The notes: generated from the letters alone by a model not told the origin. 64,000 nt of DNA from Elusimicrobiota bacterium (GCA_016715645.1 JADJZR010000007.1:116221-180220), one strand, 5' to 3'; shown: positions 1 through 25,295, counted from the stretch's first letter. Program-made: numbers and translations.

Positions 1-2056
1 CCCGACGGTCCCCGCTTCCCGGAGAAAAGGCCTTGGGAACCGTTCGAACCTGGACACGGCCTCGGCCAAGACTCCAAAAACGGAGGGCCAAAGCCACCGC
101 CTCATTTTCCGCGATAAAACGAATCTCCGTGTCGCGACCCCGAGACGATAAACAGGCTCGGGCCAATGCTCCCAAACTCTTCCAATCCGCACCAACGGGA
201 ACCACCCACACCCGCGCATTTTCATCGTTCACCACCTGAGCCAGTCTCCCTTTCCACCCTTCGCCGGCCTTGGCGTAGGCGTCGAGCAGGCTCAGCAAAG
301 ATTGTTTTGATTTCACGGCGGAACGATCCCGCACAGCCGCCTCGTCCAACGCCGCCACAAAGACAAACCGAGCGGTGGCGTTCCTCAACTGCGCGTCAAC
401 GGGCTCCGGCAGACTTATTACGGCACGAAGGGCGGTTTCTGAATTTCCCATCGCTCCACTGCCGTTTTTTCCCTCGACATGGTCCCCATCGGATGAAGAG
501 GGCGGAGCTCGGAAGAAGTCATGGCGATAATGTAACACCAACCCAATGATTATGAACACCACGCCGAGGGCAGGTCCCCACCCTCCCCACGCAATCAGAA
601 ATCCCCCCGACCCATAAAAAGACATCAGGAAATGGGCAAGCCGTGTTAAATCTTTTCCCTGATCCGAAAGCGAATGGGAACCAACAAACACAGGTTCCAA
701 AATGACCGCCAGCACAGGGATCAACCACATGTCCGGAAAGGGCACTCCGAAGGAGGCGAACAACCACGAAACAACAAAAAAAGGCGCAACCCAATGGAGA
801 AAGAACTCCCACAACGCTGTAAATGCAAATTCCAAGTGTTTGGAATATTTATAATTCGGCGAGATTTTAAACAATCTCGCAACACCCTTCCAGACCGATT
901 TCGTTAGGGGCGTTTGAGCCAGAACAGCCGGTGGTAAAGAGAGCGTTGGATTGTAGTCACCCATCAGAAGAATCAGTCGTTTGGCGGTGCGTGTTTTCCA
1001 TTCCGGATCCTGTAGAAACTTTGATGGCATTTCAAGGAGGATATTGGGTAGCGCTCCGGGTGTGAGAGCGGCTCCCATCCCTTCGGCGATGGGATTAAAG
1101 GATGGATCAATTATTCCAAACAGGTTGTAATTCCGAACAGCCTCTCGATGTTTTTCGAATTCCTCATCGGATGCATTCAGGACGACGTCAAACGAAACCA
1201 TGGCCTCGCCCCGGGTCGGAGCAACGACGACTTCAAACGTTCCATCCTTTTTAACTCGCGCATGAACCCCGGCGGATATTTTTTGGTCGTACAAGGTAAC
1301 GAGCTCTTCCGTGACTATTTTGTTTAACTCCTCGAGTGAAGTCCCCCTAAAAAGGATGGGATGGCCTGGATACTCAGACAATTCTTCCCGCCCAGCGGCT
1401 CCCATTTCCTCTGGTGGGGAAAGCGAGTCCAGATAGGCCCAAAGACCGCCGGCCTTTAATTTAATGGCGTGCCAATGGAGGTGCCGTTGAGACGCTCCGC
1501 TAAAGGGGCCATTAATCATAACCCCAAATTCAGGACCAAGTGCCTGGGCCGATAGAAGAAAATCCATGAACCGGTTGTCGCGATCGTAAAGATTAGGAAC
1601 AGGATCCTCAGAAATGAATTGAAAATGAGGATACCCATACTCGCCAAGATTAACGGTGGCACGATAAACATTCCGGCCCGTTCCTTGAACCTGCACAAAG
1701 AATTCATCGGAATTAGCCCCCATAAGACGACAAAACACACATTTATCATCCGGGTGTCCTTCACGTATGTCTCGAGGGTGGCGTGCGAACTCAGACAAGC
1801 GACGGGGTTTATCGTAGTCCGCGCGTTCGGCCACATCCACTAAAACTATTTTAATTCCATTGGCTTCAATAACATTTTCGCGGTCCCGGGATTCGTACAG
1901 ATATGGAAAATACGGTTTCCCGTTAGGGCGGCCTTCCCGGACGAGCCTGCCCCGTGTGGCATGGAAAGCGGACAGGAGCCTATCCTTGGCAAACCCCGGT
2001 CTCCCCACTGCCGTGATATCAACGTGTGGAAGCCCACTCTCCCGATCAGCAACCAC
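1..2056 (-). CDS. HIT-family (histidine-triad) nucleotide hydrolase/transferase domain fused to a multi-pass membrane region. Partial: the 3' end runs off the window start. Absent from the supplied ORF track
   Basis: My own minus-strand translation (codon first bases at 2056, 1840, 1837 ...) is open from the TAG at 2072-2074 down to nt 2. It contains KCVFCRLMG and GVMINGPFSGASQRHLHWHAI (Hint-type CxFC and N-G..Q..H-x-H-x-H motifs). Hydrophobic helices follow: FAFTALWEFFLHWVAPFFVVSWLF, IPVLAVILEPVFV and GGFLIAWGGWGPALGVVFIIIGLVL. The start is unresolved (GTG 2056, GTG 1840, or read-in from the upstream gene). Confidence 0.6.
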   Translation of the reverse strand, partial: MVADRESGLPHVDITAVGRPGFAKDRLLSAFHATRGRLVREGRPNGKPYFPYLYESRDRENVIEANGIKIVLVDVAERADYDKPRRLSEFARHPRDIREGHPDDKCVFCRLMGANSDEFFVQVQGTGRNVYRATVNLGEYGYPHFQFISEDPVPNLYDRDNRFMDFLLSAQALGPEFGVMINGPFSGASQRHLHWHAIKLKAGGLWAYLDSLSPPEEMGAAGREELSEYPGHPILFRGTSLEELNKIVTEELVTLYDQKISAGVHARVKKDGTFEVVVAPTRGEAMVSFDVVLNASDEEFEKHREAVRNYNLFGIIDPSFNPIAEGMGAALTPGALPNILLEMPSKFLQDPEWKTRTAKRLILLMGDYNPTLSLPPAVLAQTPLTKSVWKGVARLFKISPNYKYSKHLEFAFTALWEFFLHWVAPFFVVSWLFASFGVPFPDMWLIPVLAVILEPVFVGSHSLSDQGKDLTRLAHFLMSFYGSGGFLIAWGGWGPALGVVFIIIGLVLHYRHDFFRAPPSSSDGDHVEGKNGSGAMGNSETALRAVISLPEPVDAQLRNATARFVFVAALDEAAVRDRSAVKSKQSLLSLLDAYAKAGEGWKGRLAQVVNDENARVWVVPVGADWKSLGALARACLSSRGRDTEIRFIAENEAVALALRFWSLGRGRVQVRTVPKAFSPGSGDRR

Positions 2057-4053
2057 TTTAAGGGGATCCAGCTAATGATCTTACCTGCCAACATTTTTAG
2101 GAAGGCAATCACTCTTTTCCGCATGCTATCTTCCGTTGGCAAAGGATGGAAATCAACTATTTTTTGTTTGTTGAAAGAAACCACATAGGGCTTGCCTTGC
2201 CATTGAACCTCACAAGTTTTCTTTCCATCGGCGGAGTCTTTTATTTTTATTTTTGGGAGGACCTGTTTAATGTTGTTAAAACCAAGAAGGCTCGCTGTTT
2301 CTCTATAAATGTCGGCGAAAATTTTTGCTCGGACCTGTGGATCTTGTTCTTTGACCGCCGCTGTTAATGCGGAAAGGAAAGACAACTTTTCGACGTTGGC
2401 GGGGGAAGTGGCCAGAAAGAGCTTTTGGCCTTGGAAGAGGCTTTCCAGTGGAGTTTTTTCCTGGGAAAAGACGCTTAGGTAAGCCGATCCTTGGGCCGTA
2501 TCGATCTTATCGATCCGAGGAGTAAAGCGGACCACCGTGACGCCTGCACGGGTGAGTTGATCGGTTAAACCGGAAGAATGGAACCCCCCGGTCACAAGCA
2601 CGGCGGGCTTGGAGGGATTGTTTTTCATCTCCCTCAACACATTGTCCGACATGGCGGTATCCCGGGCCTGGGCTTCCCAGTAGAACGTCTCAAAATCCTG
2701 AAGGTTAAGCCTCTCCTGGATTAAAATGTCTTTACTCAAAGAGGTGTATTGATTCCACTCTTCCGTTGTAAGGGAAAAGGCCGCCAGTTTTTTGGCTAAC
2801 CCTAAAACCGTTGTTTCCTCCACCAACCGTTTTTCGGAAGGGCTTTTGATCCGTAGGGCCAGAATCGCTCCTTCAAGAGCCCGTAAATCTGTGAACAATG
2901 TCTCCGGATCAATTTTGTCCGCCATCAGGACATACCGGATGTACATTTCCATCTGTGGAAAGCGGTGGAGGTCAACCCCGTTTTGGGCGCACAGGGCGCG
3001 GAGGTCACCATAGAATTCCGAATACCGGATTTTGCCGAGTCGGTAAGACGTGCTTTTTTGGGTCAACTTTTCGATGTCTCCGGCGTTCAACCGGCGCAGG
3101 AGGACCCCCAACAAATCCTCTCGCTCCCGATCCACTTGTTTAAAATCAAGCCGGCCTTCGAGGTCCAGGGCTTCCTGGAACCAAACCAAGGAGGGCCCCA
3201 CAGCCTTTTTGGGCGCATCGGATAAAAGGGCGCGAATATAAGTCCCGAGCGGCGTTGTTTCGTTGTGGAAAGACTGGGCGAGTTTGACGAATGCGAGAAG
3301 GGTTTGATTCAACCCTTCCTCGCACCGTCGATCCAGGTCCGCCTGAACTCGCTTGAGTGTCTCTTGCATTCCCCTTTGGCGGGGCTCGGCCTGTTGGTAA
3401 GCCGCCACGTTGGCCCGGTAATGGGCCGGATCATCCACACCAACGATGGGAGGGAACGCCCGGTTTCCCGTGATGGCCGAATGGACGGGGCCTGAAATGT
3501 CGTTGACCCGAAGCAAATAGTCCGCCACGGTTCGCAGGATGTCCGGCCGGGAAAACCGGCGCAATCCCCCAATCTCAATGGGCCCGTAAGCCCCCTCCAA
3601 AGCAACAAGGCCAATGGACCCGTTTGAAACAAGGGACTCGATGGCGCGCCCAATTTTCCGTTGGGCGGCTTCGTTGTGATGGACATCTTGAATGTGAATG
3701 ACAACACGGGAAGAGTGGGAAGCGTGAGGCGACGTTATCTTTCGCACGGACCCGCATTCGAGTGGAAGAGGGAAACCAAGGGGATTCCCAACAGACTGAG
3801 AATCCGCCGGGTCGGGAGAAACCAACGTGATCCGATGGGGAGTCGGCAATGCCGCCAGTTGGAGCCGTCCTGCCCGCTCTGCTACCGATCTTTGGCGAAC
3901 CGATTGGGTCCGCCGTTCGTCCCAAAAGGCGGATTCGGCTCTCAAAGACCCCACTGAGCCGTGGACCCAGAGCCCTGTCGCGAAAACAAAAAAAAGTTTT
4001 CTAAATTTTTGTTTCCCCATGGATTCACCGCCCCATGAGTAATAGTGTAACAC
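1846..4053 (-). CDS. Secreted protein of unknown function, Tiki/TraB/ChaN-like by motif pattern; paralogue of the ORF at 20886..23423
   Basis: 735-aa ORF with a signal-like segment from M12 (MGKQKFRKLFFVFATGLWVHG, ATG at 4020). Blocks shared with the 845-aa ORF: FWDERR/FWKERR, VVIHIQDVHHNEAAQ/LVVHIQDVHEQREAQ, LVALEGAYG/LVGLEGATG, VLVTGGFHSSGLTD/LLLAGGFHTQGMTD, VVRFTP/VVFTP. The family assignment is inference only. The last ~70 codons overlap a more protein-like frame (see findings). Confidence 0.7.
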   Translation of the reverse strand: MLHYYSWGGESMGKQKFRKLFFVFATGLWVHGSVGSLRAESAFWDERRTQSVRQRSVAERAGRLQLAALPTPHRITLVSPDPADSQSVGNPLGFPLPLECGSVRKITSPHASHSSRVVIHIQDVHHNEAAQRKIGRAIESLVSNGSIGLVALEGAYGPIEIGGLRRFSRPDILRTVADYLLRVNDISGPVHSAITGNRAFPPIVGVDDPAHYRANVAAYQQAEPRQRGMQETLKRVQADLDRRCEEGLNQTLLAFVKLAQSFHNETTPLGTYIRALLSDAPKKAVGPSLVWFQEALDLEGRLDFKQVDREREDLLGVLLRRLNAGDIEKLTQKSTSYRLGKIRYSEFYGDLRALCAQNGVDLHRFPQMEMYIRYVLMADKIDPETLFTDLRALEGAILALRIKSPSEKRLVEETTVLGLAKKLAAFSLTTEEWNQYTSLSKDILIQERLNLQDFETFYWEAQARDTAMSDNVLREMKNNPSKPAVLVTGGFHSSGLTDQLTRAGVTVVRFTPRIDKIDTAQGSAYLSVFSQEKTPLESLFQGQKLFLATSPANVEKLSFLSALTAAVKEQDPQVRAKIFADIYRETASLLGFNNIKQVLPKIKIKDSADGKKTCEVQWQGKPYVVSFNKQKIVDFHPLPTEDSMRKRVIAFLKMLAGKIISWIPLKWLLIGRVGFHTLISRQWGDRGLPRIGSCPLSMPHGAGSSGKAALTGNRIFHICTNPGTAKMLLKPMELK

Positions 4054-4062
4054 AGCGGGATT

Positions 4063-4085
4063 AAGATTGTCTTAAGAAGTTGTAA
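4063..4085 (-). promoter_or_regulatory. Conserved upstream element shared with the paralogous operon (copy A)
   Basis: aagattgtcttaagaagttgtaa matches 23497..23519 (aagattcccttaagaacttgtaa) at 20 of 23 positions. It lies about 40 nt upstream of the likely start at 4020 and contains the 6-3-6 palindrome ttaagattgtcttaa (4061-4075). Confidence 0.4.
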
Positions 4086-4105
4086 ATTATTAGTAACAGG
4101 TCAGG

Positions 4106-4972
4106 CTATTCTTTGATGCCTTCGAGGACAATGCCTTTAATGATTTGTTTCTGGAATAAAAGAAACATAATCATCATGGGAAGAATGGAGATGACGGCGC
4201 CCGCCATCAGAAGGCCGAAACTGCCGCCGAACTGGCCGTTGAGCACGGCCAAAACAAGAGGCACGGTGCGCATTTTGGAGTCGTGAATGATGATGAGGGG
4301 CCACACAAAATTGTTCCATTGTTGCATAAACATAAAGATGGACAGGGACGCCAACGCGGGCCGACACAAAGGAAGAATAATCCGCCAATAAATATAAAAC
4401 TCTTTGCACCCATCGATACGGGCCGAGTCCAAAAGGTCGTTGGGGATTTCTCGAATGAATTGGCGCATTAAAAATATGCCGAAGGCTCCCGCCATGGTTG
4501 GAATAATCAGCCCTTGAAAGGTGCTGAGCCAACCCAACTTTTTTATGAGCACAAACGCCGGAACAATGTTCACTTGCCACGGAACCATCATGGAACCCAG
4601 CAGAAGAAGGAAAATTTTGTCCCGACCCCAGAACTTGTGTTTCGCGAAGGCATACCCCGCCATGGAACAAAAGAAAAGGTTCGTCACCGTCACAGCGCCT
4701 GCCACGATGACGCTGTTCAAGATGTAGCGTTTCATGGGGACCAACCGGAAGAGGTCTCGAAAAGATTCGAACGTGGGGTGGTGAACCGCGAAGCTCGGCG
4801 GATAACTCAAAATCTCCGCCCGGGGCTTGATGGAGGTAAGGACCATCCACACAAACGGCAACACCATGACCAACACCCCCAACAAAAGCCCCCCGTACAA
4901 GAGAGTGTTTTTTCCCCAACGTTCAAAACGTATATACGCGGTGCTTGGATAATGACCGGCGGCACGTGCCAT
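4106..4972 (-). CDS. Carbohydrate ABC transporter permease (MalG/UgpE-like)
   Basis: 288 aa, multi-TM, with an EAA-loop-type segment DLLDSARIDGCKEFYIYWRIILPLCRPALA. It is adjacent to a second permease and a solute-binding protein. Confidence 0.9.
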   Translation of the reverse strand: MARAAGHYPSTAYIRFERWGKNTLLYGGLLLGVLVMVLPFVWMVLTSIKPRAEILSYPPSFAVHHPTFESFRDLFRLVPMKRYILNSVIVAGAVTVTNLFFCSMAGYAFAKHKFWGRDKIFLLLLGSMMVPWQVNIVPAFVLIKKLGWLSTFQGLIIPTMAGAFGIFLMRQFIREIPNDLLDSARIDGCKEFYIYWRIILPLCRPALASLSIFMFMQQWNNFVWPLIIIHDSKMRTVPLVLAVLNGQFGGSFGLLMAGAVISILPMMIMFLLFQKQIIKGIVLEGIKE

Positions 4973-4975
4973 GGA

Positions 4976-5923
4976 TTATTCCTTCAACCGAAGAAACTTA
5001 AGGTTTGTCAAAGTGAGCACAAAAATGAGGAGAAACAACATGTAGGCGATCGCCGACGCGTACCCCATCTCAAATCGCTCAAAACCACGCTCATACAGGT
5101 AGGTGACAATCGTGAGCGCGGAATGGAGAACGCCCCCCACATACTCCGTCCCTTGGGTGAGAATGTAGACCTGGTCAAACACTTGGAATGACCCGATGAC
5201 GGACATCAACACCACAAAAACGATCGCGGGACGTAGAAGAGGAAGTGTAATGTGCCAGAAGTTTCGCAGTCCCGACGCGCCATCGATCTCGGCGGCTTCG
5301 TAAATGGTCCGAGGGATTCCCTGCAATCCCGCTAAAAAGATGATGAAGTTATAACCGATCCCGCCCCAAATGCTCATGAGCATGATGGCCGGAAGAGTGG
5401 TTTTCGGGTTGGTCAACCAATCCACCGGGGGGATGCCCATCTTCACCAGGACGAAATTGATGAGTCCGTAGGTCCCCCCCGCATACAGCCATTTCCACAC
5501 AACGGAAATGGCCACGATGGCGGTGATGGTCGGCAAAAAGTAAATCGTTCGGAACAGATATTTCATGAACCGAATTTTTACCGAATCGACCCACACCGCC
5601 AACAACAAAGAAAGGGCCACACCAATGGGAACGGTTCCGGCCACATACATCAAGGTGTTGCGAACCGCAATCCAGAATAGACGATCCTCGAAAATAAGGC
5701 GGTAATAGTTGTTCAGTCCGACCCATTTCGGCGGCTGAAGCACATTGTACTGAGTGAAGCTCAAGAAAAGAGACGCGACGATCGGCATGAAAACAAAAAC
5801 TGAGATAATCAAAACGGCGGGAAGAATAAACAAATAACCCGGAATCATTTTTTTGAACTCGGCAAAAAATAACAGCCGACCGGCGGGGTCCCGCGCTTTT
5901 AATTTGTTTAGAAAAAACATCAT
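4976..5923 (-). CDS. Carbohydrate ABC transporter permease (MalF/UgpA-like)
   Basis: 315 aa, multi-TM, with EAA loop YEAAEIDGASGLRNFWHITLPLLRPAI. Confidence 0.9.
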   Translation of the reverse strand: MMFFLNKLKARDPAGRLLFFAEFKKMIPGYLFILPAVLIISVFVFMPIVASLFLSFTQYNVLQPPKWVGLNNYYRLIFEDRLFWIAVRNTLMYVAGTVPIGVALSLLLAVWVDSVKIRFMKYLFRTIYFLPTITAIVAISVVWKWLYAGGTYGLINFVLVKMGIPPVDWLTNPKTTLPAIMLMSIWGGIGYNFIIFLAGLQGIPRTIYEAAEIDGASGLRNFWHITLPLLRPAIVFVVLMSVIGSFQVFDQVYILTQGTEYVGGVLHSALTIVTYLYERGFERFEMGYASAIAYMLFLLIFVLTLTNLKFLRLKE

Positions 5924-5951
5924 TTAGAGTGCGCTCCTCTCTGGAAAAACC

Positions 5952-5988
5952 CTTCCGGTCCCCCTTTCGCTGAAAGGGGGACCGGAAG
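5952..5988 (-). terminator. Intra-operon stem-loop with U-tract (attenuator or partial terminator) between GH130 and the permease genes
   Basis: A perfect 16-bp stem, cttccggtcccccttt / aaagggggaccggaag, has a 5-nt loop. On the minus strand it is followed by GGTTTTTCC, then GAGGAG and the ATG of the permease. Confidence 0.6.
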
Positions 5989-5996
5989 CATCAATA

Positions 5997-6923
5997 TCAA
6001 TTGGGGAAGCTGTGGGTCTTGATGAACTGGAGAATGTCGCCGATTTTGGCCTCGGCCATGGAAATACAGGTATCGGCGCAACCGTAATACAAGCGCAGTT
6101 TGTCACCGTCCACCACCGCCGAGCTGGGGAAAACAACGTTCGGAACGTCCCCCACCCGCTCGTACGTTTCCGTGGGCGCCAACAAATAATCCTGAGTTCG
6201 ATAAATGACTTTCCAAGGTTTTTCCAGATCCAAGAGAGCGCCGCCGGCGTAGTAGAGGTAACCGTTGCAACTGGTCCACACGCCGTGATAGATCAGCAAC
6301 CATCCCTCTTTCGTTTCAATGGGCACCGGGCCAGGCCCCACCTTGGTCGACTGCCAGCCGCCCCGGGGTCCAAACACGAAACGGTGATGGCCCCAATGAA
6401 CCAGGTCCGGGCTGGACGCATAAAATACGTCTCCAAAAGGCGTGTGGCCCCGGTCGCTGGGACGATGCAACATGGCGTATTTCCCATTAATTTTTCGGGG
6501 GAAAATGACGCAATTGCGGTTCGCCGTGGCGGTGGGGTTTTCCATTTGGTGATACGTCTTAAAGTCTTTTGTCCACGCCAACCCAATGCACGGCCCCTGG
6601 GCGCCCGCGTTGCACCACGTGACGTAAAACTTGTCCTCCAGCTGAGTCACGCGAGGATCGTAACTGTGGGGGGTCATCACCACTTCCGGATCGTCGCTGA
6701 TCATTTTGATCGGGTTGGGGTCAATGGTCCAATTGATGCCATCTTTGCTGAACCCGGAATGGAGGACGTAATGCATGTTGACTTCGTCCACGCGGAACAC
6801 CCCGGCGTAACCATCCCCAAATCGCACGATCGCGCTGTTGTGGATGCTGTTGGCCCGCGGAACCGCCTTGGCCGTTATAATGGGATTGTTTTTGTACCTC
6901 TGGAATACGGTTTCGTTTGCCAT
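5997..6923 (-). CDS. GH130 family beta-mannoside phosphorylase/glycosidase
   Basis: 308 aa with a GH130-typical N-terminus, FQRYKNNPIITAKAVPRANSIHNSAIVRFGDGYAGVFRVDE. The later blocks YDPRVTQLEDKFYVTW and MLHRPSDRG are typical of this beta-propeller family. Confidence 0.8.
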   Translation of the reverse strand: MANETVFQRYKNNPIITAKAVPRANSIHNSAIVRFGDGYAGVFRVDEVNMHYVLHSGFSKDGINWTIDPNPIKMISDDPEVVMTPHSYDPRVTQLEDKFYVTWCNAGAQGPCIGLAWTKDFKTYHQMENPTATANRNCVIFPRKINGKYAMLHRPSDRGHTPFGDVFYASSPDLVHWGHHRFVFGPRGGWQSTKVGPGPVPIETKEGWLLIYHGVWTSCNGYLYYAGGALLDLEKPWKVIYRTQDYLLAPTETYERVGDVPNVVFPSSAVVDGDKLRLYYGCADTCISMAEAKIGDILQFIKTHSFPN

Positions 6924-6924
6924 G

Positions 6925-8157: not shown

Positions 8158-8184
8158 GCGCGGACCGCCTTATTTTATTGGAAG

Positions 8185-10405: not shown

Positions 10406-10441
10406 CGCCGGATCTCTTCTCTCACGCGCATTTTAAGAATT

Positions 10442-11145: not shown

Positions 11146-11171
11146 TTTGACATCCTCCTTTGTTATAAAAA

Positions 11172-12791: not shown

Positions 12792-12919
12792 GGTGAACCG
12801 TCGCCCTTAATCAAATGAAATAACGTCCCGCCTGTCAAGACAAACCCGAGAGTGGCCCCCCAGGATTATCTTTCCCTTAAACTAAACATTGATGACAACG
12901 AACCCTCGGAGCTCGAGCA

Positions 12920-15900: not shown

Positions 15901-18900
15901 TTGCCGTGGAGTAGGGCTTTGCGATCAAAGGTTTCACACCGGTTTCGGATGCAGAGAGGAACGCCGTTTCTTTTTCTTTGGCGGGCAATTTAGCGAAATC
16001 CACGATTTGTAAGAGGACACCCCTCCCTTGCGTTCGACCCAAAGCTTCCCTTTCCGCTTCGGAAACCCCCTCCGTAGCCTCTCCGCGAGAAAGCCTGCCC
16101 GCCTGGTTAGCCCGAGATTTGCCCCTCTCAGGCGTGGTAAAGAAATATTGCCGAATTTCTTTGTCATTTCCCGATCCACGGAAGTTAACCACTTCTCCAT
16201 CTGCAAGATAACATTTAATTCCAGTTTTAAAGTTCATGCGAACGATGGGAGAATCGGCTAAAACGTTGGCTAACATCCCCTCCAGCAACCTTTTCTTGCC
16301 AACCATTAATTTAGCTTCATCGCTCTCGGCATTCCACACTTTAATTTGGTCTTTATTGTCATCGAGAAGAACAACGGAACCGTCGTTACTGAATTCCACC
16401 CACACAGCCTTGTCCACGATAATCCCATTTGTTGTGGGTGAGAATGTATTCTGCATGATCGCATTAAATTCTTTTTGATGTTCTCCGAATTCATAGCGCA
16501 CAACCGAAGACTCACCGGGTAAAGGGCGAACATCGTTATCGACTATGTCAAGAAGGTCCCTTTTCTTTTCACCGGCCAGGGACAGAACAGCCAGTTCAAC
16601 CACGGTCGCGTCTCTCGTGGGAACAGCCTCAAGATTTCCAATTTTTGTTGCCGTTAAAAATCCTCCGTTCGCTTCCCCACCAACCACCATGTCATATTGC
16701 CCCCCTTCGACGGCTGCGTTCATGGAAGCAATAACATACGGAGACCCCACGTCCGTTAAAGCCACCGTAAAACCTTCGCGCTCAAGGTAAGCCACAACCC
16801 CGGGATTCACTGTGTTTGGCAAGGAAATGTGGGGATTTCTTGCGCCGCTCTTCTCTTTTAAGTAGACCGCCGTCAATGCCACCAGGACATCGCCAGGGAC
16901 AAACCGGAAAGAAATTTGATCCCCGTTTCGGACGACAACCAAAACGAGCGGTCTGTCAGAATCGCCGTCAGTGGAAAAAATGTAGCGCACCGTATCGTTC
17001 AGGTTGAGTTGTCTGAAAATAGCCAAAATCCTGTTCAACTGTTCCTGTGTAATACCTTCGGTATCAACCGGAACAAAATCATCAGTTGCGCCAAAACCAA
17101 CGACCGTGGAGATTCCCTTTTCAACCTTGGAACGATTAAGAAAAACTCGCACAATGTTCTGGACCATTTCACGCCCAACAGCGGAATGTTCGTAGAAGGC
17201 GGCACTGGGAAGACCAGCCACGGGGCCAAAAAATCGACTGTAGCGCCGTTCGGACGTTTCCCTTGCCTCTTTCTGATAGTCCCTGATTTGGTCTGGTCTT
17301 GGTACACGGGTGGGTTTCAACAGACCGTAATCGTCAAATTGAGAATCTTGGAGGGTCCGGCGATACACTAATTCACTTATTTTTTCAGCGGTTAATCTGG
17401 CGATCGTAGCGTTGTCATCTGGAGTTGTTTCTCCGACAGCGCTCCCCCCTTTCATTCCATTAAGCCCCGTTTTGATATGACTTCCAGTCACCATAAAAAA
17501 CAGGCCCTTTGCCTGCATTGCAACGTAGGTCAAAAATGGCGTTGGGATTCTTCCGCAGTAGAAGGGTTGACCTTCCATGTCAAGGATCGCGCGGGCCACG
17601 GCGGTCTCCATCCGTTTGGTGGAGGGCCGATTGTCTCCGCCAAAATAAATTTGGCTGCCGGTTTCACTTCCAAGATGAGAAAAATGGGTGCGCGCTACGG
17701 CGTAGGCGGCAAGATCGGTTAACTCGTGCTCGGGCCCACGCACACCGCTGGTCCCAAATGCGGGATAATTTGGGAAATAAATCATGGCTTGGATTAAATT
17801 CTGGGCCTCCCGACGGCGGAGTTCTGGGATCAACATTTTAAGATTTGTTCCCCGAGGAACCGTTTTTTTACTAAGGTAGGAAGTCACACCTTGGGAAACT
17901 ATCCTCTGTTTGGTTTCCCCCGTGAGTTTAATGTTAGCGTAGGAGGCCAAGAGATCGTATTTATTTTTTTCTTGAGATGAAACTATTTTAACCATAAACA
18001 TATGGATCGACATGGCCTGATCAGCGATACCTCTCATGTGATCTGTTTGTCCCTGGTACATCATGGCATGGAAAAACTGGCGGGACCTTTCTCCCAGGCT
18101 CGACCCTAAATATTCTCGGCTGTATTGGTCGTTTAGCAGGTTGCCAACTTCGGCGACGTACGCCTCGGCCATTTTTGAGTCTTCCAGGGCGAGACTGTTG
18201 AGCGAACCAACCACGTCGTCAACGCGTCCCTCGCGCAGGTCCACCACAAGCTGCCGAATCCCAGGAAGCTCAATTTGACCTAATGCAAAATCAATGCTTA
18301 GGGCGGTTTTAAGGGCACCCTGGACGTCTTCAAGTACCCGTCTCGTTCGAATCAATCGCCCCCTGTATGGATTTCCGATTAGACCGGCACCCGCGACAGC
18401 AGCATCCAAGCTTAATATGGCCCTTCCAAGGCTATCCACTTGGTCTTGGTAGGCTTTTTTCCTGTCGGTCTCCGTGTCGTTACTATGCGCACTAACGAAA
18501 CGACTCAAGGTGACAAAAAGTTTTTGAGAATAATTGGGATCCTTAGCGATCTGGGCAATGTCCAGGACGAACGCATCCGGCTTTCTTGGATCGGGTTTCG
18601 TGGTCTCGCTTGCGGCCAAACGAAGGTCTTGAATCCACGTGGAACCTTGTTGAGGAATCGCTTTGATTAATCGGAGAAGATCCCCGACAAATTCGTTCCA
18701 GTTGTTGTCCATTGAAGGTTCACCCAACGAAGGATTCATTCTTCTGAAAATTTGGGCCCCACGTGATTTTGTTGCGCCAAGAACAATCAATTCGAGTGCC
18801 GCCTGTTCAGGCTTCCCCGTTTTGATAAGGGATAAAATATCTTCAGCCGCCTTAGGTACGTCAACAACTGGTTGGATTAAATCGCTACCTACCATAACGC

Positions 18901-20920
18901 TGTTTATATTATTAAGCGATTTGATTAAATTATTCAATTGGCCGGCAATTTCGCCTGTCCCAAAAACCCCGTTTCTTTGCAAATTATCAGCAAAGGAAAT
19001 AAAGTTGGACCGATATTCAACCCACTCAGCCCGAAGTTCGCCTGATCTCATCCCTATAAGCCTGAGGATATCTGCACGCTCTGCTTGTTCTATACGCCCA
19101 AAATTAGAGGCAATAGCATTAACTTCCTCATCGGTTGTGGCCAACGCCAACCGCACAATAAAAGAATTGGCAATCCTCGTCTTTTCCGATTGCGCCATCC
19201 CACCCTGGGCTACGTAACCACTGTCTACCCTAGGAGGATTGCCAGCATTATCGTAACCCAGGATTTCCCCACTCGAAATTTGTCGACTGGTTTCGCGTAT
19301 GAGCCGAATAGTATAAGGACGGACAAACAACCCTTGAATATCAACAGAAGAAATCCCGGCACTTTCAAGATTATTGATGACCAGTCCGGCAACATCAATA
19401 ACGTCCCCTAAATTGCCGTCCCGTTGCAATTCAAAAAGACCACTAACTAAACGACCTACACCCACAACAAAACCTCTTTGTTCAATTGCCCCGGAATTGA
19501 GCTGTTGTTGGAGCGTTTGAAGTTCCTCAAAGATTTCCTTCGCCTTGTCCTCTTTGGCTTGGTAAGGCATTCCGTCCATGGCCATGGGTTGCACTGGAAC
19601 GGTGGCTCTGAAAAGAGTTGCTTCTCCTTTTGTGGAAACTATTCTGTATCCAATTCCTTTGGGAACCATGACCGTCTGTCCACGAGTCAGAGTTAATTTA
19701 CTCCCATCATCCATTTGGAGCAGTAAAGGCATTTCCGCTTCAAGGACGATTAAAGTTTCAACATCGTGATATGGGGGTTGATTGTGGTTTTGCCCCATTG
19801 CAATATTTATCCGACTCAACTGAAATTCAGGCACGTCTCCGAGTTCGCGGTAAACTGTTTCTGTTTCCGCCACCTGAACCCCATCCCGCACCAACGGAGG
19901 TTCGCCTTGGAAAACCACGGTGTTCATCAGTTCAGGAACGTCCACATGCTTTGGCGTCAAACCACCGCGAAGAACGTTGTTCGAGTTGGCCATGATTTCC
20001 ATTCCGACCCCATCCAGATACGCATGGGGCACACCCGCACTCAAATACATGGCCTGCCCTGGATTCAAACGAATAAGGTTTAACAGATATACCGAAAACA
20101 CCCCCCGATCGTGGTGTCCCTCTGTAGAAAACTCAGCATCCGAACGAAGAACCCAGTATTCGGCTGAGTTTTTGGGAAACGGGGTCTTATTGTTAACCTC
20201 ACGCAACCGCTGGATTAGGGGAGATAAAATGGTGTTTACTTGTTCTTGGGGAAGCCCCATTATATTCCCATAAAGAGTTTTTAAATTCCCTTCAGACGGC
20301 ACTGAAACAAAATCAGTTGCTCCTTGAATGGTCATCAGTTCCGCATTTGCATTGATCGCCCCTGCAATTTCGTTTAACGGCCTGAAACCTCGAAGACCAT
20401 AAAATTCGGTCACCGCAACGATCAGTTCCGGTTTGTGATTGGGATCTTTGTAATTCCGATTTCCAGCCCTAACATCTATCCCTTCTTGATTTTCCCTATC
20501 AAATCCAGCTTGCGCTTGCTCCGCGTTCGGGTGCACCTGGATGGAGAGAGGTTTGCCCGCCGCCAACACCTTAAAGAGGAATGGCAGTTGTCCGTTGTAA
20601 AGTCCCCGAGCGTGGGGAGACATGATCCCCTCTCCGGCCCGCTCGACCAAACGACCCATATCGATCTTTGTGCTTTTAGGCAAAATAGCCGTTGAGGGGA
20701 GATCCGGATGGGCTCCTATCCAGACCTCCGCATATGGGCTATCGCCCGCTGGAATGCCCAACAGATTCGGGATAAACGCATCTTCTCCCCGTTGTCCCCA
20801 AGCGTAATTTTGGACCCCCGTTTCGAGAATTACGGGGTAAGGTCTGGCGGCATATTCCTCTAAAATGCGAGCCTTTTGGCGAAAATTAAAAAATGTTTTC
20901 GATGTCGGAACCTTTCCCAA
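12920..20920 (-). CDS. Giant multidomain protein: type I phosphomannose isomerase + unknown ~600 aa + phosphomannomutase + 2 TM helices + mannose-1-phosphate guanylyltransferase + unknown ~400 aa
   Basis: Uninterrupted 2666 codons. PMI motifs: LSIQVHPN, YKDPNHKPE, VPHAYL, EIMANSNNVLRGGLTPK. Phosphohexomutase motifs: FGTSGVRG, TGSHIK, FSTDGDSDR, GGEANGG, RGSGNDKEIRQYF. TM segment at aa 1676-1728. GMP motifs: ITLAGGASSRFWPL, LIEPGRRNTLPAI, LTADHII, WNSGMLVF, EWIDIGSF. Confidence 0.9.
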   Translation of the reverse strand: MGKVPTSKTFFNFRQKARILEEYAARPYPVILETGVQNYAWGQRGEDAFIPNLLGIPAGDSPYAEVWIGAHPDLPSTAILPKSTKIDMGRLVERAGEGIMSPHARGLYNGQLPFLFKVLAAGKPLSIQVHPNAEQAQAGFDRENQEGIDVRAGNRNYKDPNHKPELIVAVTEFYGLRGFRPLNEIAGAINANAELMTIQGATDFVSVPSEGNLKTLYGNIMGLPQEQVNTILSPLIQRLREVNNKTPFPKNSAEYWVLRSDAEFSTEGHHDRGVFSVYLLNLIRLNPGQAMYLSAGVPHAYLDGVGMEIMANSNNVLRGGLTPKHVDVPELMNTVVFQGEPPLVRDGVQVAETETVYRELGDVPEFQLSRINIAMGQNHNQPPYHDVETLIVLEAEMPLLLQMDDGSKLTLTRGQTVMVPKGIGYRIVSTKGEATLFRATVPVQPMAMDGMPYQAKEDKAKEIFEELQTLQQQLNSGAIEQRGFVVGVGRLVSGLFELQRDGNLGDVIDVAGLVINNLESAGISSVDIQGLFVRPYTIRLIRETSRQISSGEILGYDNAGNPPRVDSGYVAQGGMAQSEKTRIANSFIVRLALATTDEEVNAIASNFGRIEQAERADILRLIGMRSGELRAEWVEYRSNFISFADNLQRNGVFGTGEIAGQLNNLIKSLNNINSVMVGSDLIQPVVDVPKAAEDILSLIKTGKPEQAALELIVLGATKSRGAQIFRRMNPSLGEPSMDNNWNEFVGDLLRLIKAIPQQGSTWIQDLRLAASETTKPDPRKPDAFVLDIAQIAKDPNYSQKLFVTLSRFVSAHSNDTETDRKKAYQDQVDSLGRAILSLDAAVAGAGLIGNPYRGRLIRTRRVLEDVQGALKTALSIDFALGQIELPGIRQLVVDLREGRVDDVVGSLNSLALEDSKMAEAYVAEVGNLLNDQYSREYLGSSLGERSRQFFHAMMYQGQTDHMRGIADQAMSIHMFMVKIVSSQEKNKYDLLASYANIKLTGETKQRIVSQGVTSYLSKKTVPRGTNLKMLIPELRRREAQNLIQAMIYFPNYPAFGTSGVRGPEHELTDLAAYAVARTHFSHLGSETGSQIYFGGDNRPSTKRMETAVARAILDMEGQPFYCGRIPTPFLTYVAMQAKGLFFMVTGSHIKTGLNGMKGGSAVGETTPDDNATIARLTAEKISELVYRRTLQDSQFDDYGLLKPTRVPRPDQIRDYQKEARETSERRYSRFFGPVAGLPSAAFYEHSAVGREMVQNIVRVFLNRSKVEKGISTVVGFGATDDFVPVDTEGITQEQLNRILAIFRQLNLNDTVRYIFSTDGDSDRPLVLVVVRNGDQISFRFVPGDVLVALTAVYLKEKSGARNPHISLPNTVNPGVVAYLEREGFTVALTDVGSPYVIASMNAAVEGGQYDMVVGGEANGGFLTATKIGNLEAVPTRDATVVELAVLSLAGEKKRDLLDIVDNDVRPLPGESSVVRYEFGEHQKEFNAIMQNTFSPTTNGIIVDKAVWVEFSNDGSVVLLDDNKDQIKVWNAESDEAKLMVGKKRLLEGMLANVLADSPIVRMNFKTGIKCYLADGEVVNFRGSGNDKEIRQYFFTTPERGKSRANQAGRLSRGEATEGVSEAEREALGRTQGRGVLLQIVDFAKLPAKEKETAFLSASETGVKPLIAKPYSTARKLAVGIPSIVFATGVGFIFVANAIPFVGGLLIWSLGLLAVIALPYTGVALMAYRALKVPFEGEGNIKDLADGFRRFSYDPTFDQNSNEATLKIGKRTVTVKFGRPTDARWFAETTRTDTTASITVRPETPAWLLPIVLSQEIYRVDWWKGVQSTFDFLLGLPDVTSSPAWWIAKIKKQAADTDTRAPPDQPTADMTRVASITLAGGASSRFWPLNKTLSELSGMGVTMIQATFRRVTEKISGAFSSFIDVKNFFIVAGSDVETPLKNQLPDMPLENLLIEPGRRNTLPAILFAMANIKKQNPNATLTMLTADHIIPDTEQFRRTMDKAIALAQDPKANNIVTIGINPIDLKTGEVAPPAEWTPFGAIEANTQSQVGVGYKIKLFTEKPSAELAGQMVQEQETGDATRYWNSGMLVFSIESMEKALEKFQPELFAKYEALVKAIQDGEMENARNIFNSFPSKIKHPTEDRQVHNSVDYALLVPMTLETEDSGVQGIVVPGSFEWIDIGSFDALRKVKSIPTDEHGNRRIGAGSTTGSKDTILVADTEREIAVEGVDDVAVVFSNMGQLLVIQTSLAQGVKNVKEAYDKDSETPTVVWDSKMTIQADGAGVTVIGADSQKVRVLGVENISITFEGNKVTVRNTALFPTRPALLSVTDQVVPAATVQQFGREKGVKVEPVQTPNTLPSFIRYSGEGTVAPPAARAAKKFDTLTADVFLRANAYWTDGELGEFTQWARTPKNKPTAQKLFLDVAFTLARLHGHNRTSTGNYSAERQRNEMIALAVLADQMGMSDESRSHALGLYSREAAVQTIAARNNENGRVDDVQHQFMLAPVVRGEDGNVGWDPAAGEDGINRWKKELREAEEKATVTLFLMSGDTSITPSELEGFLKAQQVESRGPMQGTFFVHQGNYLTDDGRIDFGGVVGSLAPVHKILTSGTIAIVSMYENRFSFDNMPEGFARENLLVYIINMLGKLTQAGTSIETDVNSLRLSFIAA

Positions 20921-23423
20921 TAGGAAGCAGGGTCGTCACGCCGAAAACCAGGTTTGTTGCCGCGAAAGCCTGCAGGGCCGAACTGTCAACACCCGCCCAT
21001 ATCAATAGGCCCGCTAAAGCCGCAAAAAATATGTTGGCCAGGGGCCCCGCAATAGCCACCCAGGCGTTATTTCGAAACCCCAGGTCATCCGTTTGAGCCC
21101 AAACGCCCTCTCGACCGAACATTAACTTTCCACTCTTGCCACCCAAGAAAGAATAAACCCCCAAATGGCCGGCAACTTCGTGCAACAACACACCAAGCAG
21201 GCCAAAAACTCCCACCGATACTAAAGCGGCATAGGTTAAGCCAAAAATGGAAACAGACGCGGCCACGACACCAAGCCCACCAATCACCAGTTGCCCAGTT
21301 TTCATGAAATTTCGAGTCTGTGTGGCCTCGGTTGAAGGCGGTCTGTTCTGTCCTGAAAACAGGTCGACAACTTTTGCGACGAGCGCCATCGGAGAAAAAT
21401 AACTCGCGATGCCTCTTTCCTCAACATAAATCGCAAAATTACTGACTTTGCCCGAGAAAGCGGCGACCAATTTTCCTAATCTGCCTTTATTTTCGCTCCC
21501 TTCCCCAACGGCGACCGAAACCTGTCTGCCTTCAGTTTTCGTGAAATACACACCTCCATCACTACTCTCAACTTCCGATTGGCTCAAAGCTTCAACTGCG
21601 GGAGTCGTTTGCTTGCCCCCGAGAGCCGCAAGCGTCAGTTTTAAAAGCGCTTTAACGGATTCAGCTGCCCTCTCGTAGCCAGGTGTGGCGATTTTGACAG
21701 AAGCGTTGATCGATGCTTTGGTGGTGATTTTCTCTTGGGTGAACAATTTTTCCAGTGCGGGGCGATCTTTTAGGAAATCCAGGTAATGGGAATCGGAAGA
21801 AACTTCCGTGAGCGTGGGGGTGAACACCACGTAAGACACTTTTCCTTTTTTCAACAAATCGGTCATGCCTTGGGTGTGGAAACCGCCGGCTAACAGAAGG
21901 CCGGTTTTTTGGTTTGTTTCTTTCATTTTAGCTAACAGGTTGTTGACCAACGTTTCGTCACGTTTTAAGGCCGCTTGGCAAAACCCTTCAAAAGAAACCA
22001 GGTCTTTGGGCAAGTCGCCCTTATAGTTGTCCGCCCCCGGGGCTATTTGGTCCATACGGGCGGCCATGTTCATGACGCGGTCCCGTGTCCGTTGATAAAT
22101 TTCCCAGTCTCGGGGCGCCATTTTGAACGCCGTCAGGTTAGCCAGGCTGTGCAGGTCTTGGGCCAGCTCATACACAGCCCGCTCGTCCGCGGACCGGACA
22201 AGGGTCGAGGCCACTTGGTCTTGGATCATGTCCAGCTCTTCCAGCAGAGCTTCCGGTTTGATTTGTTCCGATGCCAACACATACTTTATATAGGACGCCA
22301 TGGCCGGAAACCGGGACAGGGACACACCCCGAGCCTCGCAAATGGTTTGAAGCGAATCGTAATATGCCCCATAGGTCAAGTGGCCGGACTTATAAAGAAG
22401 AGTGCGCTGGACCAGCGCGGAAATTTCTTTTTCCGACAGGGCCTTGGTGAGACTTTCAATCAGTCGGGTTCGTTCTCGTTCCACGTCGGCAAAATCGATG
22501 CCTTTTTCCATGGCCAAACACTTTTTGAACGCCGCCATCGCGGGATACTTTTTCTCAATTTTCACCGACTTTTCCATAAGAGCCACAAAGTCCGGTAAGG
22601 GCATTGAATCGGTGCGGTAACGGGCCTGGGCCTCATCAAAACTCTTTAGCGCGGGAGAATACACCTTCGGTTTCGCCTGGGACAGACGGTATTCCCAGCT
22701 TTTAATCCGGTCTTGCACCCGCTGTTGGATAGGCAGGGACTCTTTAAAGGAGTTGAGATTTTTCAAATAAACGTTGACCTCTTCAATTCCCCAGAGGGTG
22801 GGTTCTTTTTCCATGGTCCAGCCCGCGTGCTCGCCGCCGCCAATCAAATGTTCCTGCAGAAAGAAATCCGCCACATCTCCAATGACCGCTTGGTTGGGGA
22901 AGGTCCGATAAGGAACCAAATCAAACGCTCCCGTCGCTCCCTCCAATCCAACCAGAGACACGGCCCCTGTGTTGACCACTTCGCTGATCAGTCCGGAAAT
23001 GTTCATTTGGGCTTCCCGTTGTTCGTGGACGTCTTGGATGTGGACCACAAGCGGGCGGTCCGAGGCGTTGGGCGCGAAATAGGCGGCGGAAATGCTTCCG
23101 TGAGCCGACGAAATATTGTTGAGCCAAGCGGGCATCAACTTAATTTGTTCGGGCGACAACACCGATCGTGCCGCCAACATATGCGCCTGCCCCCCACCGG
23201 CGGAGCCGGCCATGGCGGAATCAAAGGACCCCACCAAAGGAAGCGCATCAGCCAAAGCGCCCTGGGCCCCAGGGGCCATAGCGTATTGAACGCCCTGGCC
23301 GGTCGAATTTTTTGTCCGAGCGGCGTCGCGCCGTTCTTTCCAAAAATTGGCTTCCACCAACGGTGCGGACACCGTCGAAAACAAAAACGCGATCCCCACG
23401 AACGCGGCAATAAATTTTTTCAT
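20886..23423 (-). CDS. Secreted Tiki/ChaN-like protein (paralogue of 1846..4053) with a C-terminal M50/site-2-protease-like membrane module
   Basis: 845 aa with signal peptide MKKFIAAFVGIAFLFSTVSAPLVEA. Paralogy blocks are as listed for 1846..4053. The C-terminal ~145 aa are hydrophobic and carry LLHEVAGH (HExxH inside a TM helix, nt 21165-21182) and NLVFGVTTLLPIGKGSDIENIF (N..LLP..x.D-type second M50 motif). It overlaps the giant gene start by 35 nt. Confidence 0.8.
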   Translation of the reverse strand: MKKFIAAFVGIAFLFSTVSAPLVEANFWKERRDAARTKNSTGQGVQYAMAPGAQGALADALPLVGSFDSAMAGSAGGGQAHMLAARSVLSPEQIKLMPAWLNNISSAHGSISAAYFAPNASDRPLVVHIQDVHEQREAQMNISGLISEVVNTGAVSLVGLEGATGAFDLVPYRTFPNQAVIGDVADFFLQEHLIGGGEHAGWTMEKEPTLWGIEEVNVYLKNLNSFKESLPIQQRVQDRIKSWEYRLSQAKPKVYSPALKSFDEAQARYRTDSMPLPDFVALMEKSVKIEKKYPAMAAFKKCLAMEKGIDFADVERERTRLIESLTKALSEKEISALVQRTLLYKSGHLTYGAYYDSLQTICEARGVSLSRFPAMASYIKYVLASEQIKPEALLEELDMIQDQVASTLVRSADERAVYELAQDLHSLANLTAFKMAPRDWEIYQRTRDRVMNMAARMDQIAPGADNYKGDLPKDLVSFEGFCQAALKRDETLVNNLLAKMKETNQKTGLLLAGGFHTQGMTDLLKKGKVSYVVFTPTLTEVSSDSHYLDFLKDRPALEKLFTQEKITTKASINASVKIATPGYERAAESVKALLKLTLAALGGKQTTPAVEALSQSEVESSDGGVYFTKTEGRQVSVAVGEGSENKGRLGKLVAAFSGKVSNFAIYVEERGIASYFSPMALVAKVVDLFSGQNRPPSTEATQTRNFMKTGQLVIGGLGVVAASVSIFGLTYAALVSVGVFGLLGVLLHEVAGHLGVYSFLGGKSGKLMFGREGVWAQTDDLGFRNNAWVAIAGPLANIFFAALAGLLIWAGVDSSALQAFAATNLVFGVTTLLPIGKGSDIENIF

Positions 23424-25260: not shown

Positions 25261-25295
25261 GGGGCCTCCTTTTGCCTCTTCTCAGCCCCATTCTT

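Follow-up and report, generated by a model that had tools for sequence, protein, structure and literature searches.

Two putative frameshift-split members of a family of giant membrane fusion proteins with a Tiki-like head in an Elusimicrobiota genome

Members of the Tiki/TraB/ChaN/erythromycin-esterase superfamily carry the ordered motifs G-E/D-x-H, E, R and G-x-G-H. Loci for beta-mannan utilization built on a GH130 phosphorylase typically combine that enzyme with a GH113 or GH26 mannanase, an ABC importer, a phosphomannomutase (PMM) and a mannose-6-phosphate isomerase (PMI), and fusions of PMI with a mannose-1-phosphate guanylyltransferase (GMP) are already known. Here we analyze a 64-kb stretch of an Elusimicrobiota genome (JADJZR010000007.1:116221-180220; the window), in which two very long genes, giant gene A and giant gene B, accompany a set of beta-mannan utilization genes. 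We favor, at a probability of about 0.75, the reading that the window carries two frameshift-split members of an Elusimicrobiota family of giant membrane fusion proteins, with a Tiki-like head, a promoter element of their own and a variable enzyme cargo.

The head compares with described proteins as follows. As in Tiki and PrgY, it is N-terminal, follows a signal-like helix and usually precedes transmembrane (TM) segments, and like the ChaN/Tiki superfamily at large it keeps the ordered catalytic motifs, with a profile match in 17 of 55 members. Unlike Tiki, PrgY and ChaN, it has an inserted helical region of ∼280 amino acids (aa) and a conserved FWxERR segment, it is joined to thousands of cargo residues, and it occurs in many copies per genome under a dedicated promoter element. 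The features on which the argument depends are listed here; all named open reading frames (ORFs) are on the minus strand.

1-2056, minus strand: cargo of giant gene A, an open frame leaving the window start (ORF, motif, transitive homology)
1846-4053, minus strand: A735, the 735-aa head ORF of giant gene A (ORF calling, pairwise alignment)
2062-2065, minus strand: junction A, a C4 run (C5 in relatives), the 1-nt deletion splitting the gene (nucleotide alignment)
4063-4097, minus strand: putative promoter element of the A-type gene, 23-nt core at 4063-4085
10442-11145, minus strand: gene split by a third frameshift into 145-aa and 127-aa ORFs, 234 aa in relatives
12920-20920, minus strand: cargo of giant gene B, a 2666-aa ORF (ORF, Pfam/NCBIfam)
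20886-23423, minus strand: B845, the 845-aa head ORF of giant gene B (ORF calling, pairwise alignment)
20894, minus strand: junction B, an extra A that shifts the frame to a TAA stop at 20886-20888
23497-23531, minus strand: putative promoter element of the B-type gene, 23-nt core at 23497-23519

Reading frames of the two giant genes

An earlier note on this DNA had described two modules, in each of which a secreted Tiki-like protein is followed by a separate, overlapping ORF for a membrane-anchored nucleotide-sugar enzyme. The ORFs it named are all present, and all on the minus strand (1846-4053, 20886-23423, 12920-20920 and the open frame from 2056 to 1). The note thereby pointed to a real and unusual family, but its division into two genes is not supported: each pair reads as a single gene cut by a 1-nt indel.

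At junction A the window reads GGAT-CCCC-TTAAAG, against GGATCCCCCTT in locus L008, found by a genome scan in the metagenome-assembled genome (MAG) EBPR_ori4bin.9. L008 holds the orthologous locus with a single 2051-aa ORF, 81% identical in aa to the window over the 735-aa region and 74–76% over the HIT-like region that follows. Look-ups of the window permease and GH130 proteins recovered five further independent assemblies of the cluster. L008 has C5 here, and so do L086, L088, L089 and L090, independent assemblies whose nt identities to the window are, in descending order, 98%, 96%, 92% and 92%; L086 and L088 carry a single gene of 1767 aa, and in L089 and L090 the reading frame passes uninterrupted across the junction. 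For L089, 98.0% identical in nt, the C5/C4 difference is the sole indel in 9282 aligned nt. Since the relatives are in frame with C5, the final ∼70 residues of A735 (∼2062 down to 1846), which are out of frame relative to the conserved HIT frame, would be out-of-frame read-through. A Pfam scan of this tail at E<=10 returned nothing.

Junction B reads GAAAAC[A]TTTTTTAA, and the inserted A is absent from the 90%-identical orthologue L083. In L083, which comes from the same MAG as L008 and is 90.5% identical in aa, the B head and PMI cargo lie in one frame and one ORF, which continues past the locus end. Three other assemblies have gene calls of 3705, 3571 and 3165 aa that carry PMI and PGM_PMM domains, the last being 61% identical to B845 over its first 200 residues. 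Two metagenome scans for junction B, with or without the extra A, gave 0 matches, so the comparison is limited to the L083 sequence and to gene lengths in other assemblies.

Because of the indels at 2062-2065 and 20894, head and cargo show up in the window as overlapping ORFs. The earlier note was right that heads are physically linked to downstream enzymes, with one ORF per position in L008, L083, L086, L088, L089 and L090; the link is in fact stronger than it had proposed, because head and cargo are predicted to form one polypeptide in every close relative examined. The third break, at ∼10834, likewise falls at a C run (TC5 in the window, C7 in a relative). Three frame breaks in ∼34 kb, two of them at C runs, suggest indel errors in the assembly, and both junction indels are most simply explained by mistakes in assembly or sequencing, or by mutations of very recent date. 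Annotators who meet a head ORF overlapping an enzyme ORF in such MAGs should treat the pair as a frameshifted single gene.

The alternative that keeps the genes separate is a true operon of two genes, present in duplicate on either side of the mannoside cluster, in which a secreted Tiki-like sensor is translationally coupled to a membrane nucleotide-sugar enzyme. The window itself does show stop codons and overlapping frames, head N-termini are Sec-signal-like, and TM segments come after most heads, as they do in PrgY and the Tiki proteins. Yet every close relative has one continuous ORF, the 70-aa tail of A735 is out of frame with the conserved HIT frame, reading of the sequence upstream of GTG 2056 and TTG 20920 revealed no recognizable Shine-Dalgarno or ribosome-binding site, and cargo elsewhere in the family is not specific to nucleotide sugars. 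Such an operon is quite unlikely.

We regard as very unlikely a further possibility, that the frame breaks exist in the organism and that programmed recoding carries ribosomes past them, setting the ratio of head-only to head-plus-cargo product. The sites would permit it: perfect tRNA re-pairing could follow both a +1 slip at junction B (UUU-UAA, 20886-20894, as in prfB) and a −1 slip at junction A (C-CCC, 2062-2065), the junction B stop codon would stand in the A site beside a U6 run, and both breaks are within head-cargo linkers. However, the sites are not conserved, relatives at 90–98% identity being plainly in frame; the two would need slips in opposite directions; and the third frameshift, in an unrelated gene, is at a C run, which suggests an error of assembly or a chance mutation. 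A stimulatory element was neither sought nor seen.

The head family and its putative promoter element

The two heads had been called paralogues, and the alignment bears this out: A735 and B845 are 27% identical over 573 aa (E 2e-62) and have in common the motifs FW[DK]ERR, HIQDVH, LEGA and GGFH. By their sequences they are genuine paralogues of long standing, and an identity of only 27% rules out that the assembly duplicated a single locus. They are also not a local duplication around the mannoside genes, as had been suggested, but two of hundreds of ancient paralogues. Gene A likely starts at the ATG at 4020, giving a 724-aa product; a look-up of the 724-aa and 845-aa products found neither on record. 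B845 runs from a signal-peptide-like N-terminus through FWKERR, a Tiki/ChaN-like domain (residues ∼100–570) and a linker to four hydrophobic segments (706–835).

Database searches gave 54 homologues of the head, and all with a source name come from Elusimicrobia/Elusimicrobiota. Species-representative genomes contained 333 tblastn-confirmed head copies, many per MAG; we kept 80 loci of these, so that counts per MAG are lower bounds, at least 15 in GCA_016714745.1, at least 9 in fen_1177 and at least 8 in EBPR_ori4bin.9. The head is N-terminal in all 98 occurrences examined, in ORFs of 1000 to more than 3950 aa that are often in tandem. The general build is a signal-peptide-like helix ending in xFA followed by (H/Y)xPExNFWxERR, a head of ∼500–560 aa, usually a TM cluster, and then a long variable cargo. 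On these searches the family is expanded and restricted to Elusimicrobiota. Paralogous heads are 27–40% identical, and same-cargo orthologues 81–90% identical across species, which marks the expansion as ancient and stable, in contrast to polymorphic-toxin cassettes.

There is also a more distant head subgroup, at 20–25% identity, with stand-alone heads of ∼730 aa and a headed giant of 4746 aa. At locus L097 such a stand-alone 733-aa head (8001-10202, plus strand) lies divergently beside the 4746-aa giant (1-7683, minus strand), whose cargo includes a weak Radical_SAM match, NUDT9_N, HAD and two UDP-glucose dehydrogenase units. The presence of a stand-alone head and a giant in this distant lineage means that the head family reaches beyond the FWxERR subgroup. 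A cluster-member look-up for the subgroup of 720–750 aa gave no taxonomy.

The Tiki-like label given to both proteins is better supported for the family than for the window. The 17 members with a match to PF04187 (ChaN, Tiki superfamily) include P0021, the best, which passes the cut-off at 32 bits (E 1.6e-7), but A735 scores 21.9 bits (E 2e-4) against a cut-off of 27.7 and B845 has no match. The membership of the window heads is thus supported by transitivity, through other family members. In alignments of 18–55 members, QDVH (H114), E142 of LEGA, R453-D454 and GGFH (H481) are invariant or at least 90% conserved, and both window heads retain QDVH, the LEGA glutamate, RD and GGFH. An AlphaFold (AF2) model of the head has a core (residues 80–500) with pLDDT ∼90. 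Foldseek of the full head model against the PDB placed the erythromycin esterase EreC (6xcq, 6xcs) at ranks 2 and 4, with E 0.2–0.4 and a TM-score of 0.25, a suggestive but non-significant resemblance and the most meaningful one in that search; a profile search of PDB sequences with the head came back empty. We infer from the motifs and profile matches that the head is a divergent member of the Tiki/TraB/ChaN/erythromycin-esterase superfamily, and it is probably still a metal-dependent hydrolase.

The second feature common to the family is upstream DNA. The earlier note had reported a 23-nt motif before both heads, and TTACAASTTCTTAAGNNAATCTT does occur exactly twice in the 64 kb, each time upstream of a paralogue, with no copy expected by chance. 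At gene A it is accompanied by an imperfect upstream repeat, GTTACTAA, at about 4091-4098 and a −10-like TACACT at 4044-4049; at gene B by an upstream TTTACAA repeat at 23525-23531 and a −10-like TATGAT at 23482-23487. The extended consensus is gTTTACAAnaaaT-TTACAAsTTCTTAAGnnrATCTT, with the TTACAA units 11–12 nt apart. Between the two paralogues, whose proteins are 27% identical, 20 of the 23 bases are kept.

Allowing up to 3 mismatches, we found 36 copies of the motif in 2.64 Mb (the fetched loci plus the window); for 30 of them an automatic count found a listed head ORF no more than 300 nt downstream. Three of the other six precede heads missing from the list (L007 21555, L008 21655, L033 9910), and a fourth (L033 21976) is at a locus end with the right spacing for a downstream gene outside the locus, so that about 34 of the 36 copies are head-associated. 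Conversely, in a position-weight scan 76 of 94 heads had the element in the 350 nt before them, the start codon most commonly lying 48–50 nt from the motif start. A TAnnnT hexamer begins 6–23 nt past the motif in 38 of 43 instances, against a background of ∼10% for that search window, and exactly 13–14 nt past it in 30 of the 43; in 19 of the 38, an ATG follows TAnnnT by 6–8 nt. Such close spacing of ATG to −10 box suggests leaderless transcripts, and the transcripts of headed genes may often be of this kind. The motif covers the −35 region plus DNA upstream. There is no canonical −35, which explains why the family promoters escaped a scan for the sigma-70 consensus.

By its placement the 23-nt motif is a putative family-wide promoter element, found almost nowhere else in the 2.6 Mb. 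A dedicated activator or sigma factor probably reads it; as a speculation, the head-sigma fusion proteins of the family are candidates for that factor.

Two further upstream blocks were noted. An ∼80-nt conserved block, TTGGCATGGTCCGCTCACTTTAGCGGATCCCTGTGCCATCCGGCCGTTGC-ATTAGCTTATTGAACTCGGG, which includes an imperfect inverted repeat, lies upstream of the element in three paralogues of one MAG (L083 9709-9788, L083 17080-17159, L008 21555-21634) and is absent from the window. The other, CTTTTGAkGTTACGGAACA, occurs at 23564-23583 on the minus strand of the window, at ∼37-55 in L046 and at ∼9470-9488 in L065; its GGAAC core resembles the −35 boxes of extracytoplasmic-function sigma factors, and its distance to the motif varies.

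Cargo enzymes and membrane topology

The description of the 2666-aa ORF as a PMI-PMM-GMP fusion was upheld by matches to PMI type I, PGM_PMM domains I and III, and NTP_transferase/GMP. Along the ORF, PMI type I (residues 32–182) and a cupin (∼374–433) are followed by ∼600 uncharacterized residues, a phosphomannomutase-like region (1054–1490), a TM hairpin (∼1680–1730), a mannose-1-phosphate guanylyltransferase-like region (1875–2270) and an uncharacterized C-terminus of ∼400 aa. Profile matches are all above curated cut-offs: 107.7 bits for PMI_typeI_cat, 49.2 for PGM_PMM_I, 39.4 for PGM_PMM_III and 55.7 for NTP_transferase in Pfam, and 200.5 for manA (TIGR00218; cut-off 116) in NCBIfam. The catalytic signatures of these enzymes are the QxH/E/H zinc ligands of PMI, TxSH and DGDxDR of the mutase, and GGxGxR of the pyrophosphorylase; the translation contains SIQVHPN, KPE and PHAY for PMI, TGSH and DGDSDR for the mutase, and AGGASSRFWPL for the guanylyltransferase. 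Like the bifunctional ManC/AlgA/XanB proteins, cargo B joins mannose-6-phosphate isomerase and mannose-1-phosphate guanylyltransferase in one protein. Unlike them, its PMI is type I and N-terminal, a phosphomannomutase is added, a TM hairpin parts PMM from GMP, and everything stands behind a head domain.

The end of B845 (window 20886-21310, residues ∼706–845) carries HEVAGH, AGPLAN and LLPIGKGSD in successive hydrophobic segments. As in site-2 proteases (S2P; M50), HExxH, AGPxxN and LLPxxxxD are in hydrophobic segments in the same order. Unlike in that family, the resemblance is at motif level, with no match of the B845 membrane domain to Pfam M50 even at E<=10, and it is not general among the heads, TM-embedded HExxH being scarce (5 of 81). 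We did not file B845 as an M50 member.

Cargo A has a HIT-superfamily-like domain (CVFC...HLHWHAI), a soluble region, 3–4 hydrophobic segments (residues 411–504) and a conserved C-terminal domain. That it is a HIT protein, as the earlier note had it, is supported by motif and by transitive homology to DUF4922 and Ap4A-phosphorylase-like proteins, not by a direct profile match: the region matched nothing in Pfam or NCBIfam even at E<=10, and phmmer of the ORF against PDB sequences gave nothing. The histidine-triad motif HLHWHAI, preceded by CVFC, is kept in all three orthologues. A search of 5.8 billion proteins found a sole close homologue, a 783-aa protein of an Elusimicrobia MAG, and phmmer of the region over 1.84 billion representatives gave only 16 relatives, several within giants of 2595–5839 aa. 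Two of these relatives (P0071, P0062) have DUF4922, which we take to be a member of the HIT clan, above the Pfam cut-off over the aligned stretch, and a third (P0068) has a weak Ap4A_phos_N match. In GCA_016714745.1 the syntenic head protein is fused to GDPGP1_N/C domains. This transitive evidence supports an NDP-hexose phosphorylase/transferase-like domain of the HIT superfamily in cargo A. Like GDPGP1/VTC2, Ap4A phosphorylase and DUF4922 proteins, it has an HxHxHxx-type HLHWHAI after CxFC; unlike them, it has no direct model match and is embedded in a giant membrane protein.

The L008 orthologue of gene A has an extra insert of ∼555 aa (residues ∼1057–1611 of the 2051-aa ORF), with HAD phosphatase and aldo-keto-reductase domains. 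It is absent from window gene A, from the 1767-aa genes of L086 and L088 and from P0055; cargo modules have therefore been gained and lost within orthologues.

The earlier note had further tied the heads to nucleotide-sugar or HIT enzymes and called for a survey of neighborhoods. Run as Pfam scans of 54 cargo regions and selected proteins, the survey speaks against such specificity, with the same head preceding many unrelated enzymes. Core metabolism is represented by PPDK/PEP-utilizing enzymes, glutamate and leucine dehydrogenases, class-V aminotransferase, the fructose-bisphosphatase (FBPase) GlpX, GATase, inositol monophosphatase, GDPD, aldo-keto reductase, HAD, NUDIX, glucosamine-6-phosphate isomerase, carbohydrate phosphorylase and a galactokinase-like GHMP kinase. 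Sugar-nucleotide and glycan cargo comprises SDR epimerase/dehydratase, GT1/GT2/GT4 glycosyltransferases, CofD, NAGPA and GH5, and modification or signaling cargo comprises methyltransferases, GNAT, APH, ABC1, Ser/Thr protein kinase, LMW-PTP, FHA and sigma-70 r2/r4. Chaperone or repeat domains (DnaJ, HEAT, TPR) and proteases (subtilase, M48, Rce1-like) complete the set.

The claim that the heads are secreted or extracytoplasmic is questionable. N-termini of 85 heads are Sec-signal-like, with an n-region net charge of +2.6, a hydrophobic core and the conserved xFA and (H/Y)xPExNFWxERR. By contrast, cytoplasmic-type, cofactor-dependent enzymes follow the head without any predicted TM segment in at least 10 architectures, and gene B has four TM segments, an even number, between head and PMI (these hydropathy-based calls are crude). 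The charge pattern is also opposite: K/R is richer before the first post-head TM segment (2.3–2.5) than after it (1.4–1.7), and the later flank is often acidic. Either the entire proteins are exported, or the N-terminal helix anchors head and cargo at the cytoplasmic face; we lean modestly toward the anchor. About half of the signal-peptide-like N-termini (∼85 heads, loci L001–L085) have a conserved Cys in (T/S)(N/Q)C-x-F-A before PExNFWxERR, which both window heads lack; it may be a lipobox-like or other sorting signal.

Export is central to an alternative view of the family as giant effectors of polymorphic-toxin type, in which head and signal peptide are a trafficking module and the C-terminal enzymes work extracellularly or inside host or prey cells. 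The headed giants do resemble polymorphic toxins and MARTX proteins in their conserved N-terminal module, hypervariable C-terminal enzymes, several paralogues per genome and very large ORFs. Also consistent are the signal-peptide-like N-termini with a conserved cleavage-like region, eukaryote-like cargo (Pkinase at E 6e-67, HEAT, DnaJ, FHA, LMW-PTP, subtilase, NAGPA, GH5) and the placement of head and cargo on the same membrane side in many architectures, and Elusimicrobiota are reported to be enriched in huge uncharacterized proteins (PMC11573180). Unlike in those toxins, however, most cargo is housekeeping, much of it core metabolism with cytoplasmic cofactors (PMI/PMM/GMP, PPDK, glutamate dehydrogenase, FBPase, aminotransferases). 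Many members are polytopic, with up to 20 TM segments, which is hard to square with secretion; same-cargo orthologues are kept across species with no cassette-like turnover; and the window cargo matches the neighboring catabolic genes. No immunity-like genes or secretion-system domains were seen, the former without a systematic search. We judge the effector view unlikely.

A polyprotein with self-contained regulated proteolysis, in which the head, aided in some members by an S2P-like, M48 or Rce1-like membrane protease domain, would cleave the precursor to release enzyme or sigma-factor cargo, is about equally improbable. Tiki and PrgY act on protein or peptide N-termini, the candidate catalytic residues of the head are nearly invariant, the TM segments of B845 bear the three S2P-like motifs, M48 and Rce1-like domains and sigma-70 r2/r4 cargo do occur in the family, and both window genes are broken at inter-module linkers. 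Yet neither cleavage sites nor recurring linker motifs turned up, Pfam does not support the S2P-like region, and few members have HExxH within a TM segment. An extended form of the idea seems doubtful, if a little less so: that a clade of Elusimicrobiota encodes much of its metabolism and regulation as dozens of headed membrane polyproteins, expressed from one promoter element on mostly leaderless transcripts, and that the head, joined in some members by S2P-, M48- or Rce1-like membrane protease segments, processes, releases or switches the enzyme or sigma-factor cargo by proteolysis. If true, it would be a previously unrecognized way of organizing and co-regulating a bacterial proteome.

Several results weigh against our preferred reading of frameshift-split members of a headed family with its own promoter element. 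The indels could be genuine, three frame breaks are many for about 34 kb, and junction B is not a simple change in homopolymer length. A735 matches PF04187 below threshold, and the PDB fold search with the head gave nothing significant (E 0.2). Support for the HIT assignment comes indirectly, through transitive homology: hhalign, run with the HIT region and the L006 GDPGP1 domain, gave a non-significant probability of 3.9%, and an AlphaFold model of the region from a two-sequence alignment had a mean pLDDT of 35.8. Promoter function and leaderless starts are deduced from spacing alone. Finally, the topology is contradictory, with Sec-like N-termini set against an architecture and charge bias that place the head with cytoplasmic-type enzymes.

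The beta-mannan cluster and the meaning of the family

The genes between the two giants, apart from the frameshifted 234-aa gene listed above, are as follows.

4106-5923, minus strand: two ABC permease genes (BPD_transp_1; Pfam)
5997-6923, minus strand: GH130 beta-1,4-mannooligosaccharide phosphorylase (Pfam)
6925-8157, minus strand: ABC sugar solute-binding protein (SBP; Pfam SBP_bac_1/8)
8185-10405, minus strand: three small or uncharacterized genes (145 aa; 311 aa with an FN3/purple-acid-phosphatase-N-like domain; 283 aa)
11172-12791, minus strand: GH113 beta-mannanase with an F5/8 type C (CBM32-like) domain (Pfam)

All cluster genes are on the minus strand, GH113 and GH130 score 184.6 and 229 bits in Pfam, and synteny is kept in at least five assemblies. 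Mannoside genes had been placed between the paralogues, and the mannanase, SBP, phosphorylase and two permeases are there, but over ∼8.7 kb (4106-12791) and not 19 kb. The two modules also do not bracket the cluster: in relatives GH1 and GH5 genes of the cluster follow on the far side of module A, which places that module within it, and another headed giant comes after these. Like described GH130-based beta-mannan loci, this one has GH113, SBP, two permeases, GH130, PMM and PMI in one co-directional cluster, to which the relatives add GH1 and GH5. Unlike them, its PMI, PMM and GMP are fused and membrane-anchored in ∼3500 aa behind a Tiki-like head, and the HIT-like enzyme is likewise fused.

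Domain content and established family functions suggest the following pathway. The GH113 mannanase would cleave beta-mannan and release manno-oligosaccharides, the SBP and two permeases would import them, and the GH130 phosphorylase would yield alpha-mannose-1-phosphate. The fused PMM and PMI could then turn mannose-1-phosphate into fructose-6-phosphate, feeding glycolysis, or the fused GMP could divert it to GDP-mannose; the HIT/GDPGP1-like cargo of gene A would plausibly interconvert NDP-hexose and hexose-1-phosphate. Under such a scheme the window cargo appears to fit the surrounding beta-mannan utilization genes. The head would serve as a shared metal-dependent hydrolase or as a regulatory or assembly module at the membrane, and the whole headed family would probably be co-regulated by the factor that reads the promoter element. 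The PMI-PMM-GMP triple fusion beside a GH130 system is a compact candidate for substrate channeling in mannan catabolism.

A very strong hairpin at 5952-5988 on the minus strand, with a 17-bp stem and 11 GC pairs, followed by GGTTTTTCC, lies within the 73 nt separating GH130 from the first permease gene and might act as a terminator or attenuator inside the operon, or stabilize the mRNA. Rfam and tRNA scans over the window gave no matches. Upstream of gene B, at ∼23640-29600, is a mobile-element-like insertion with an integrase-core (rve) ORF (26265-27575), an AbiEii toxin gene (28599-29369), overlapping or degraded ORFs and strong negative GC and AT skew. It occupies the site at which relatives have a third headed giant (2395 aa in L083), which in GCA_016714745.1 is split into 776, 259 and 1359 aa. 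The G+C content of the window is about 0.49–0.56 in the first 40 kb and 0.60–0.64 past ∼42 kb (42000-64000).

Part of this picture is known: the superfamily in or near which the head falls, the ordinary cargo enzymes, the mannan pathway and PMI-GMP fusions. Apparently undescribed are hundreds of giant polytopic proteins that have a head and a promoter element in common and are unrelated in their enzymes, and our search of the literature on Elusimicrobia for Tiki, ChaN, giant and fusion proteins found no earlier description of the headed family. Elusimicrobiota have been reported to be enriched in huge unannotated proteins, which were not characterized there (PMC11573180). The family raises the questions why PMI/PMM/GMP, PPDK, glutamate dehydrogenase and FBPase should be tethered at the membrane behind a hydrolase-like head, whether the headed giants are processed, and which factor reads the element. 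If our reading is true, the headed family would explain part of that reported excess of huge proteins (PMC11573180), and it would constitute a new, very large protein family with a directly searchable, regulon-like cis element.

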